Assembly: GCA_030065015.1 (NCBI GenBank)
Contig: JASJDU010000001.1
Location: 13,814-77,813 of the forward strand
DNA: 64,000 nt
Direction of reading: 5' to 3'
Origin: Candidatus Caenarcanales bacterium
GTDB taxonomy: Bacteria; Cyanobacteriota; Vampirovibrionia; Caenarcaniphilales; Caenarcanaceae
Positions 45,138-50,363 of the stretch are shown here, piece after piece. Each line of letters opens with the position of its first letter. Positions within the stretch are counted from its first letter, which is position 1. The translations under genes were made by a program, and so were the position numbers. The notes under the pieces are model-generated. The model worked only from the letters and a program-made list of their open reading frames with translations, did not search any database and was not told the DNA's origin.

Positions 45138-48100
45138 TTAATCAATCTTCAAAAAAGCTTCTGAAAGATCTTTGAATGAACAATTTATTCCGCATGTCTT
45201 GGACAATTCATAACCAGCAATCGTTGCTGCTTGATCTCTCCGATCATCTCTAAAGAACTCCAGTGAATCAATCCCATGCAAATCAACTCCCTTCGCTTGT
45301 TCTCTCGTTGCAATCTGCGCGTATCCTCCTGCCACTAAAGCATTTGTTTTGGATAACCCAGCTTGATGAGCCAAATAACCGAAGAGAAAGTTGCCATAAA
45401 CATCATAATCAAACTCTTTTCCATTGAAGGAGTAACTGGAAGGCAATCCTTCATTCCCCGGAACATTAGGAGAAAGAACTTCCTTTAAATCAAAAGCTTT
45501 TTGAGGACTCATCGTCTCATGCAACAAAACCAAACTCTCTTTGCTTGCCGGATGCTCCCTCATAAATTGAGCTTCTGGGCTGGAATTAATCGAATCCAAA
45601 GCCTCAGAAAACCATTCAGTTAAATCATTCGATTTGGGAGCATTAAATATCTTGCTCTTTGAACGAGCAGTATCAGGAATCTTTATTGGAGGAAGAACCC
45701 CTGTTGCCTCCATTGTTTTTAACCAAACGGGTCTTTGTCCTTTTGTGTAAGCGTCAATTTGCAATAATTCTGCAACCGTATATGCTTGCATTCCAAAGCT
45801 TCCAGAAAATCCAAGAGCGGCCCCTGACAACCCACCAACAACAACTCCGGCACCAGTCCCACTTGACGCCCCTCCAATCACACCGGAAACCAGACCAGCG
45901 GATGTCACTCCAAGATCAGCCATTCCGGATTTCAAAGCAGCGCCAACGACTCCTCTTGTTGAATCAGATTGATTGAAGAAGGAATTGGTTAATGAAGATT
46001 GAGCAACCTTTAAACCAGGCACCGCCAACCAAAAAAGCGGGTTCCTCTTACTCCTCGCCAACGCATACTCACCCGCCAATAAATACTGCAAATTCTTCTT
46101 GTCATTCTGTAAATCTTTCAACGTGAATAATCCTCCCTTCCCTCTCTCTATTAAAAGCTCAAATTCCTTCATCGGCGTCAGAAACTTCTCCCTTATTATC
46201 CCATCACTCAGTTCCTGACTTCCTAATTGCTGCTGATTATATATCAAGTTTCCCTTCTCTCTTCTTCTTGCCTCTGAAATTACCTCCTTCTGCCTATCTA
46301 TCTGTCTAATTGCAAACTCTCTCAGCGTTAAATTAATACCTCTATCATTCCTCGTTATCTCCATCAATTCATTAAGCGTTTGATCCATTGAACTTAAAAT
46401 CGATATCCTTTCCGCTTGATGAATCTCTCCTTTTAGCGTCGTAAATTCAAACGCTTGTTTTTGCAGCTCTTTTAGTTCTGTATCATAATCCGCATTGTGC
46501 ACCAAAATATTCTCTGCGAAGTAATTGTGATTATCCTTTACCGAAAAGTTATAAACTCTAAATTCTCCTAATTCTTCTTCTTTTTCAATTAATTGAATTT
46601 CTTTCTCTTCAAAAGTTTGAAATGAATCTCCAAGTTGTAAATCTTCTGCTTTTATCCAACTGTTTTTGTTTGTTACCCAATAAGGATGATCGGGGGTAAC
46701 TTTGATTATTGTTTGGTCTGAAAAGGAAAGTTTGAGTAGTTTATTTGCTTTTCGGACATAAGTCTTTTCGATTGGTTTTTTTAGGGGGTTTCCTTCTTTT
46801 CCGGGGACTTTGATTAAGGTTCCTTTGGGGAAACAGGTATAAGCGAAGGGTTTATTTAGATCTACGAATAAGACTTCTTTTCCAACGGAAATTACGGATG
46901 CAATATAATTCCCCTCTTGAAAGCTACTAGTTCCGTTTATTCCTAGAAGATTTCCTCTTAAGCTCCAAACATTATGTTTGCTTGTCCCTTGGGTTGTTGA
47001 ATGATTCAGCCCGAAGGTTCCGATTCCCGAATATCCGGTGAAAATTCCTTGTGCTGTGTTTTGCTTGTTTAAACTTCCTCCCAAAATCCAGTTCTTGTAT
47101 CCGCTTCCCAGGTATGAAGCATTTCCGATTCCTCCGAATACGGATAAATCATTTTTAAAAACTGAGAATCCGATTGTTTTAGTTAACGGATTGAAATTAA
47201 ATCCAACTCCCTCTAAATTTCTGGAAAAGTTACTTTCTTTTATTGGATTTATTTTTCGATTATTGATTTCGATTCCTTCAAAATCGGGTTGATTTAGTTT
47301 TTTTCCATTCCAATTGATTTCTTTGGCATTTATTTTCGTTGAAAGATATTTATTTCCTTTTATTTTTTCTTTATTAAAAGAGGCATTTAAATTAATTCCT
47401 CCTTGAATAATATCCAGGTTAATTCCGCTACTTAAAAAATCAAAGTTTGATTGAAAGGGGGCGAATTCTCCGGAAAGAAACAATTTGGGAGTTTCGAAGT
47501 TGATTTTATCTTTTGCATTTAGATTGCTCGCCTTTATATTAAGTTGCTCTTTCGCATTTAGATTTATTTCCTTTGCGAGAAGGTTGCTTGGAATTAAATT
47601 ACTTTCTTTTCCACTTCCTTCGAAAAGACTGAGATTGATTCCGGTGTTTGTTCCTCCGGAATATCCAAAATTGAGGCTAAGTCCGTCTGTATAAAAATGG
47701 TTTTGGAAAATTCCGGGATTTATATTTATTTTGTTTGCAGAAAGGTTAATTTGATTATTTGCCAATAAATTGGAGCCTTGAATATTTAGTTGTTCGGCAT
47801 TTAGGGTTAAATTATTTCTTGCGGATAGATTACTGCTTTTTTGGGTGGTTATTGAATATTTTGTATCTTGGAAATCCAGGCTTCCCAATAAAGGTTTTGA
47901 AAAATTAAAACCGAAGGATGAATTCTCATTGAACGATTGAAAGACTCCATCTTTTATTTCTATCTTGGGGGAGTTTAGAAAAATATCATTTGCCAAAATA
48001 TCGGTTGCTTTTATTTTGATTATTCCATTGCTGTTAATAATCACATCTCCGTACTTCGATTCGATTCTTGGAATTTGGACGATTTGTTCTTTTTGTTTAT

Positions 48101-50363: not shown

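Follow-up and report, generated by a model that had tools for sequence, protein, structure and literature searches.

How can a large secreted toxin be put to use when its gene has neither a transporter gene nor an immunity gene beside it? This question is raised by a tpsA-type polymorphic toxin gene at 45138..50345 on the minus strand of a 64,000-nt stretch of DNA (the window, to whose positions all coordinates refer) from a bacterium of the Caenarcaniphilales, an order within the Melainabacteria, the non-photosynthetic cyanobacterial class (PMC4040986). The initial annotation had described the open reading frame (ORF) 45138..50363(-) as a lone TpsA with a toxin at its C-terminus and had called this arrangement atypical. 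The ORF is real. Read mechanically it reaches TTG 50363; translation probably begins at ATG 50345, from which residues are counted here, and from there the gene is intact and encodes 1735 aa plus stop. The product is 100% identical to the NCBI protein MDJ0624796.1 (P0001), which lies on a contig of 156 kb in a Candidatus Caenarcaniphilales metagenome-assembled genome (MAG) and is annotated as 'filamentous hemagglutinin N-terminal domain-containing protein'. We consider it probable (about 0.7) that the product is a type Vb (two-partner secretion, TPS) exoprotein with a self-releasing toxin cassette. The unusual feature of the locus is the microdiversity of a short glycine zipper just before the toxin, whose motifs suggest that it inserts into membranes.

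The domains of the protein were assigned with the Pfam gathering thresholds (TPS 33.5, PT-HINT 27.7 and Ntox44 24 bits), and three Pfam domains exceeded them. At the N-terminus lies a predicted Sec signal peptide (residues ~1-24, 50274..50345(-)), with a hydrophobic core at residues 10-17; it was read from the sequence and its hydropathy, not with a dedicated signal-peptide predictor. It is followed by a TPS secretion domain (residues 43-274, 49524..50219(-); PF05860, 94.4 bits), for which the NCBIfam model TIGR01901 adhes_NPXG scored 77.4 bits. An NPNGI motif is present in this domain at residue 109, NPNL is absent, and the subtype may be HMW1-like. By its TPS domain the protein is a TpsA. 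An Asn-rich shaft (residues 275-1170, 46836..49523(-), 15% Asn) had no match to a Pfam repeat; the N-terminal ~960 aa (residues 1-961) are homologous to the protein P0002, which bears Fil_haemagg repeats. The shaft ends at a predicted mini-HINT autoprotease (residues 1171-1284, 46494..46835(-)), which matched PT-HINT at residues 1189-1284 with 44 bits and to which NCBIfam adds intein C-terminal signals. Its intein-like set is complete, with Cys1171, TPDH (TxxH) and VHN at 1282-1284, and the +1 residue is Ala1285. According to established intein chemistry such residues permit cleavage by Asn cyclisation, not splicing. Since Ala1285 provides no nucleophile, cleavage and not splicing is expected. 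In the survey of Zhang et al. (2012), HINT is a processing protease of type V secretion systems (T5SS) (PMC3482391).

The three elements that characterise polymorphic toxins, a trafficking domain (TPS), a releasing peptidase (PT-HINT) and a C-terminal toxin (Ntox44), are thus all present, and judging from these domains the protein belongs to an already defined class, the T5SS polymorphic toxins with HINT as releasing peptidase. The earlier proposal of a polymorphic toxin delivery protein, built from TPS domain, Asn-rich shaft, HINT and C-terminal toxin, is therefore supported. Its comparison with CdiA, FhaB and MafB holds for the delivery architecture but not for the details of CdiA: by Pfam and motif reading, VENN, PT-VENN, (E/Q)LYN, DUF637 and Fil_haemagg_2 all gave no match in the product, the last of these having been among the families suggested for a search together with TPS and PT-HINT. 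The conserved N-terminus and variable C-terminus that had been proposed as a check were found: P0002 shares residues 1-961 and ends in another toxin, Ntox17, and an allele from a sister MAG (see below) differs in the C-terminal cassette only.

The cassette behind the HINT domain comprises 451 aa. It consists of a helical pre-toxin region (residues 1285-1460, 45966..46493(-)) that is conserved in the relatives P0138, P0139 and P0142, a hydrophobic glycine-zipper segment (residues 1461-1520, 45786..45965(-)) and, at the C-terminus, a toxin domain (residues 1521-1735, 45141..45785(-)) that includes the Ntox44 region. The zipper, which had gone unnoticed before, contains 28% Gly. Its GxxxG motifs are densest over 60 aa (1459-1518), which hold seven of them, three charged residues occur across 1462-1522, and its position is kept in all full-length relatives. 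The toxin, previously unnamed, matched Pfam Ntox44 (PF15607) at residues 1615-1714 (45204..45503(-)) with 38.4 bits. DxK, GNxxxG and DxxxD motifs are invariant across an alignment of eight homologues and match the published signature of Ntox44, which combines these motifs with an all-alpha domain (PMC3482391). A model of the domain is mostly helical (predicted local distance difference test, pLDDT, 76.8; predicted template modelling score, pTM, 0.76), while an AlphaFold2 single-sequence model of the whole 451-aa cassette was unusable (pLDDT 36). Following the literature, the Ntox44 domain of this protein is a predicted RNase. Searches of the PDB returned no sequence match and no fold relative of the Ntox44 domain, and tblastn of Ntox44 against plasmids gave no matches.

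The cassette is rare. When the 451 post-HINT residues were searched exhaustively with HMMER against 1.84 billion representative proteins, only nine relatives were obtained at E<=1e-3. P0138 and P0139 align to nearly the whole cassette with 33-36% identity and both start inside the HINT domain, so the succession of HINT, helical region, zipper and Ntox44 is conserved as a unit. The Ntox44 subfamily is divergent and was fused behind a helical/zipper module in all finds. Two of the relatives occur in settings of their own. The ORF of P0139 (L014:355-2022, GCA_013298875.1) opens in the middle of HINT and runs through the whole cassette without being cut by the contig end, and looks like a detached or orphan HINT cassette. 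P0142 lies in the middle of what seems to be a series of orphan toxin cassettes (L015:1-3434, GCA_003449615.1).

The same tpsA gene, intact and with the same gene order around it, is present in the sister MAG GCA_029976255.1 (locus L004), which we compared with positions 35138..60345 of the window (25.2 kb). Every difference falls into one tract, 45276..46607(-), which is the last 1.33 kb of the gene and reaches from the end of HINT to within Ntox44; the remaining 23.9 kb are identical. The tract contains a hypervariable patch of 148 bp (45789..45936(-)) with ~45% DNA divergence and 4-codon indels. Although this patch contains synonymous changes and indels, both alleles stay in frame and keep the spacing of the glycines. 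Residues 1466-1519 hold 32 of the 35 amino-acid differences. Outside the patch the single-nucleotide polymorphisms (SNPs) thin out with distance and comprise 19 synonymous and 3 nonsynonymous changes. Correspondingly, the zipper is 53% identical to that of the sister protein, against 98-100% for its flanks; with distant homologues it shares ~35%.

Mutagenesis by a diversity-generating retroelement was rejected as the cause of the patch because all base classes change, and synonymous sites and indels are affected too. An inversion was likewise rejected, since the reverse-complement alignment scored below shuffled sequences. No donor copy of the patch was found within the window. Two readings fit the pattern: recombination may have imported a tract with a very divergent zipper allele at its centre, or selection may have maintained two old zipper alleles. 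Strain mixing in the assembly could have put two coexisting alleles into the two MAGs; the alleles are real regardless. As the zipper is the sole strongly differing place in two otherwise clonal genomes, the comparison points to it as the part that is selected and bears specificity, apparently through diversifying or balancing selection. One may go further and suppose that the helical region and the zipper form an undescribed pre-toxin translocation module, in which the zipper and not a toxin-immunity pair is polymorphic and selected, so that HINT-released Ntox44 cassettes without immunity genes would swap zipper alleles and thereby entry specificity. This extension is doubtful in our opinion.

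As for the transporter, no TpsB gene adjoins tpsA, as had been stated: the flanking genes are mnmE upstream on the same strand (50583..51977(-)) and the convergent rpe downstream (44300..44977(+)). The whole window was TpsB-free as well. In a tblastn search with melainabacterial TpsB the best E was 0.8, and a hidden Markov model (HMM) of 14 TpsBs had no matches among all stop-to-stop ORFs of at least 150 aa in the window, the sister locus and the loci L001 and L002. The sole unassigned ORF of at least 500 aa in the window (642 aa, 27152..29080) was rejected as TpsB, as it had weak LptD_N/LptC-like matches and the TpsB HMM was silent on it.

To place this result, metagenomes were scanned with the TPS domain for the frequency of such genes; 80 related loci were obtained, 68 of them with at least 1.2 kb of upstream sequence. 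TpsB was adjacent in 53 of these 68, nearly always directly upstream and on the same strand, and was missing in 15 (22%). It was also missing upstream of the closest relatives with enough upstream sequence, namely L017 (46% identity), L001 (P0002) and L002 (P0003, from another Caenarcaniphilales MAG). Orphan TpsAs that are served by a TpsB encoded elsewhere are documented: FhaC secretes FhaB, FhaL and FhaS, and TpsB2 of N. meningitidis secretes five TpsAs, orphans included (PMC10449530). With about one in five related genes in the same position, a lone TpsA is not to be read as unusual, and the suggestion of an atypical gene with non-standard delivery is not supported.

A second TpsA, P0005 (MDJ0625936.1), lies only ~1,140 accession numbers from MDJ0624796.1 and therefore very probably belongs to the same MAG, on another contig. 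Among the loci fetched, its best matches are mostly TpsAs of Vampirovibrionales/Melainabacteria directly behind a TpsB. At residues ~880-965 it carries tandem proline-rich repeats (EEPNPQPEPTPPPV, ~6 copies) and a toxin domain is absent, and by this sequence it looks like an adhesin. A related Cyanobacteriota MAG has a classical tpsB-tpsA pair, whose TpsB groups with Vampirovibrionales sequences; a protein search with a single TpsB sequence gave 15 matches only. Taken together, the 22% baseline, the documented orphans and the second TpsA make a TpsB acting in trans the simplest reading.

The statement that no immunity ORF follows the toxin was confirmed, too. The 160 bp between the tpsA stop and rpe contain only ORFs of 24 and 28 aa and hairpins, one of them terminator-like and 3' of the tpsA stop (45099..45117(-)), the second, read from the sequence, just beyond the end of rpe (44991..45011, no strand assigned). 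Two further candidates were rejected: an antisense ORF over the hypervariable patch (45659..45976) is broken by stop codons in the sister, and a 104-aa ORF beyond rpe (43902..44216) has weak helix-turn-helix-like matches and a counterpart was undetected in the relatives' loci.

The relatives of the cassette gave a similar picture, for an immunity-like ORF was absent in three of the four informative loci (L014, L015 and L098). In L014 a convergent gene begins 6 bp past the cassette stop. In L015 the apparent start of another helical pre-toxin cassette follows 30 bp after the Ntox44 cassette, and the truncated helical-pretoxin toxin in front of the Ntox44 cassette has an 81-aa ORF behind it. The L098 cassette is frameshifted and a clear immunity ORF is absent. 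L097 has an overlapping 218-aa downstream ORF, a candidate immunity gene, and L096 was left out of the count because its contig is too short downstream. No homologue of the relatives' downstream ORFs was found in the window. With three of four informative relatives in the same state, the absence is not peculiar to the tpsA locus; the cassette frequently has no immunity gene next to it. Since, moreover, the founding survey gives Ntox44 no immunity family (PMC3482391), reading this absence as atypical is not supported either. It may be that the target is not kin, that the immunity gene lies elsewhere or that the toxin is harmless before release. At the P0002 locus (L001:5446-6500), three small ORFs of 77, 146 and 102 aa come after the Ntox17 end of the protein on the same strand, in the classical order of toxin before immunity that is missing from the window locus.

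From these data we propose the following course of events. After export by Sec, the protein would be threaded through an Omp85-type TpsB whose gene lies elsewhere and for which the partner of the adhesin-type TpsA P0005 is the likeliest candidate. The shaft would present the C-terminus at the cell surface, where cyclisation of Asn1284 in HINT may cut before Ala1285 and free the cassette. The zipper could then insert into or permeabilise the target membrane and carry Ntox44 across, after which Ntox44 would act as a toxin, with a predicted RNase activity. Such a role would resemble that of the glycine zipper of Tde1, a DNase of the Agrobacterium type VI secretion system (T6SS), which permeabilises the cytoplasmic membrane of the prey and is needed for translocation (PMC10240207).

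Several points weigh against this proposal. A linked immunity gene was not found at the tpsA locus, which leaves self-protection unexplained. HINT cleavage and the membrane function of the zipper are predictions from motifs only, and that P0005 has the same MAG origin appears from nearby accession numbers alone. In addition, a pattern-based scan of GTDB genomes with two peptide patterns from a TpsB alignment gave nine loci, mostly labelled Vampirovibrionales or Melainabacteria, and none from Caenarcaniphilales, which with two patterns is not proof of absence.

The missing immunity gene may also mean that the toxin is aimed at non-kin, be it unrelated bacteria or eukaryotes that serve as prey or host, in which case an immunity protein would be unneeded. 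The lack of an ORF downstream of tpsA agrees with this, as do the loci L014, L015 and the frameshifted L098. Vampirovibrio is an algal predator. The genus belongs to the Melainabacteria (PMC4040986), Ntox44 occurs in eukaryotes and has no assigned immunity family (PMC3482391), and corals carry secreted Ntox44 homologues (PMC8162421). However, the 218-aa ORF in L097 could be an immunity gene, and strong allelic variation in near-clonal strains would sooner be expected where kin are in conflict. We regard a non-kin target as possible; it is compatible with the type Vb exoprotein that we propose and not exclusive of it. It is unlikely, in turn, that the zipper itself is the toxin, a membrane-depolarising pore like that of the LXG toxins TelE and EsxX, with Ntox44 as an accessory. 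Seven GxxxG motifs in ~60 residues at a position kept in all full-length relatives would suit a pore, and in TelE and EsxX the C-termini with a glycine zipper are reported to be toxic. Yet Ntox44 keeps its motifs without variation and shows purifying selection, the zipper, like that of Tde1, stands on the N-terminal side of a folded domain and not at the extreme C-terminus, and pore toxins are usually paired with membrane immunity proteins, of which there is none at this locus.

The lack of a TpsB in 64 kb, and the failure of the pattern-based scan to recover one from Caenarcaniphilales, might alternatively indicate a stranded relic, a TpsA without transporter whose secretion or function has been lost. 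A relic would hardly account for a 5.2-kb ORF that is intact in two MAGs, for the retention of all catalytic and secretion motifs, for flanking SNPs of which 19 are synonymous and 3 nonsynonymous, or for zipper alleles that preserve the reading frame and the glycine periodicity, and we consider this very improbable. Finally, the layout of a TpsA with a C-terminal toxin recalls a canonical cdiBAI locus for contact-dependent inhibition, whose partner genes would have been overlooked nearby. The window contains no TpsB and no ORF after the stop, VENN, (E/Q)LYN, PT-VENN and DUF637 are all absent, and the genes at the sister locus stand in identical order. For the 64-kb window such a locus is refuted, and overall it retains next to no probability.

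The probable type Vb exoprotein with its self-releasing cassette extends the T5bSS/HINT polymorphic toxins to the non-photosynthetic cyanobacteria (Melainabacteria), and Ntox44, a domain that is poorly understood, gains a T5SS setting through it. The baseline of about one fifth of related TpsA genes without an adjacent TpsB has now been measured. More interesting than the lone gene are the rarity of the cassette, its hypervariable zipper and the fact that an immunity gene is frequently missing next to it. The localised hypervariability of the zipper is a testable lead: it could reveal how a toxin's entry specificity changes in evolution, and why an immunity gene is often missing next to cassettes of this family.

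Around tpsA, the purine-rich leader of ~220 nt described in the initial annotation exists, as a spacer of 237 nt between mnmE and tpsA (50346..50582(-)), but is nothing special. An RNA element was not detected; there was no Rfam match and the fold z-score of +0.61 was no better than that of shuffled sequences, so that a riboswitch or structured leader was rejected. Further away, a HepT-like ribonuclease (39050..39373(-)) and an MNT-type nucleotidyltransferase partner (upstream ORF, L004:20698-21308) form a toxin-antitoxin pair that adjoins tRNA-Ser(tga) at 38882..38970. Three tandem ORFs on the plus strand (39996..40688, 40784..41479 and 41557..42135) lack a Pfam family; the first and second are paralogues with 43-50% identity, the third has a faint, non-significant match, and all three have a Gly/Ala/Thr-rich middle and a Gln/Asn-rich tail. 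Two paralogous, secreted-looking proteins (54702..56024(+) and 58411..58932(-)) contain repeated Cys-x-x-Cys modules (CGHCNHNK, CSHCDKQK, CDACKVQK) and had no significant Pfam match; presumably these modules resemble thioredoxin-like oxidoreductase domains. The ORF 52675..54594(+) encodes a porin in which SLH and OprB domains are fused, an architecture typical for cyanobacterial outer membranes, which would fit the assignment to the Melainabacteria.

Among known systems, the protein is closest in layout to the T5SS/HINT polymorphic toxins of Zhang et al. (2012), with which it shares the N-terminal TPS domain, the filamentous shaft and HINT before a C-terminal toxin, as well as a homologue, P0002, that carries a different toxin, Ntox17. 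It differs in that the survey assigns Ntox44 to the type II, type VI and type VII secretion systems and not to T5SS, and in that Cyanobacteria are outside its phyletic list for T5SS (PMC3482391). Moreover, an immunity gene is absent after the toxin here, and a helical and zipper module stands between HINT and toxin. Compared with Pfam PF15607, the toxin domain scores above the gathering threshold, has all three motifs and is mostly helical, whereas it represents a divergent subfamily.

With CdiA/CdiB/CdiI systems the protein has in common a large TpsA with a C-terminal toxin and variation concentrated towards the C-terminus. In contrast to these, adjacent cdiB and cdiI, VENN, the DUF637 pretoxin, Fil_haemagg_2 and NPNL are all absent, release presumably occurs by HINT, and the variable part is a membrane segment instead of a toxin-immunity pair; lacking VENN, the DUF637 pretoxin and the adjacent cdiB and cdiI, the protein is not a CdiA by membership. 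The orphan TpsAs FhaL and FhaS of B. bronchiseptica, secreted via FhaC, and those served by TpsB2 in N. meningitidis resemble it in that a neighbouring TpsB is absent and the genome has another TpsA. They are, however, proteobacterial and without described HINT-toxin cassettes, and the TpsB acting in trans is only postulated here (PMC10449530). Tde1, lastly, belongs to T6SS and to the Ntox15 family, has a cognate immunity protein and shows no sequence homology to the zipper, but in both proteins consecutive GxxxG motifs precede a nuclease-type toxin domain on its N-terminal side (PMC10240207).

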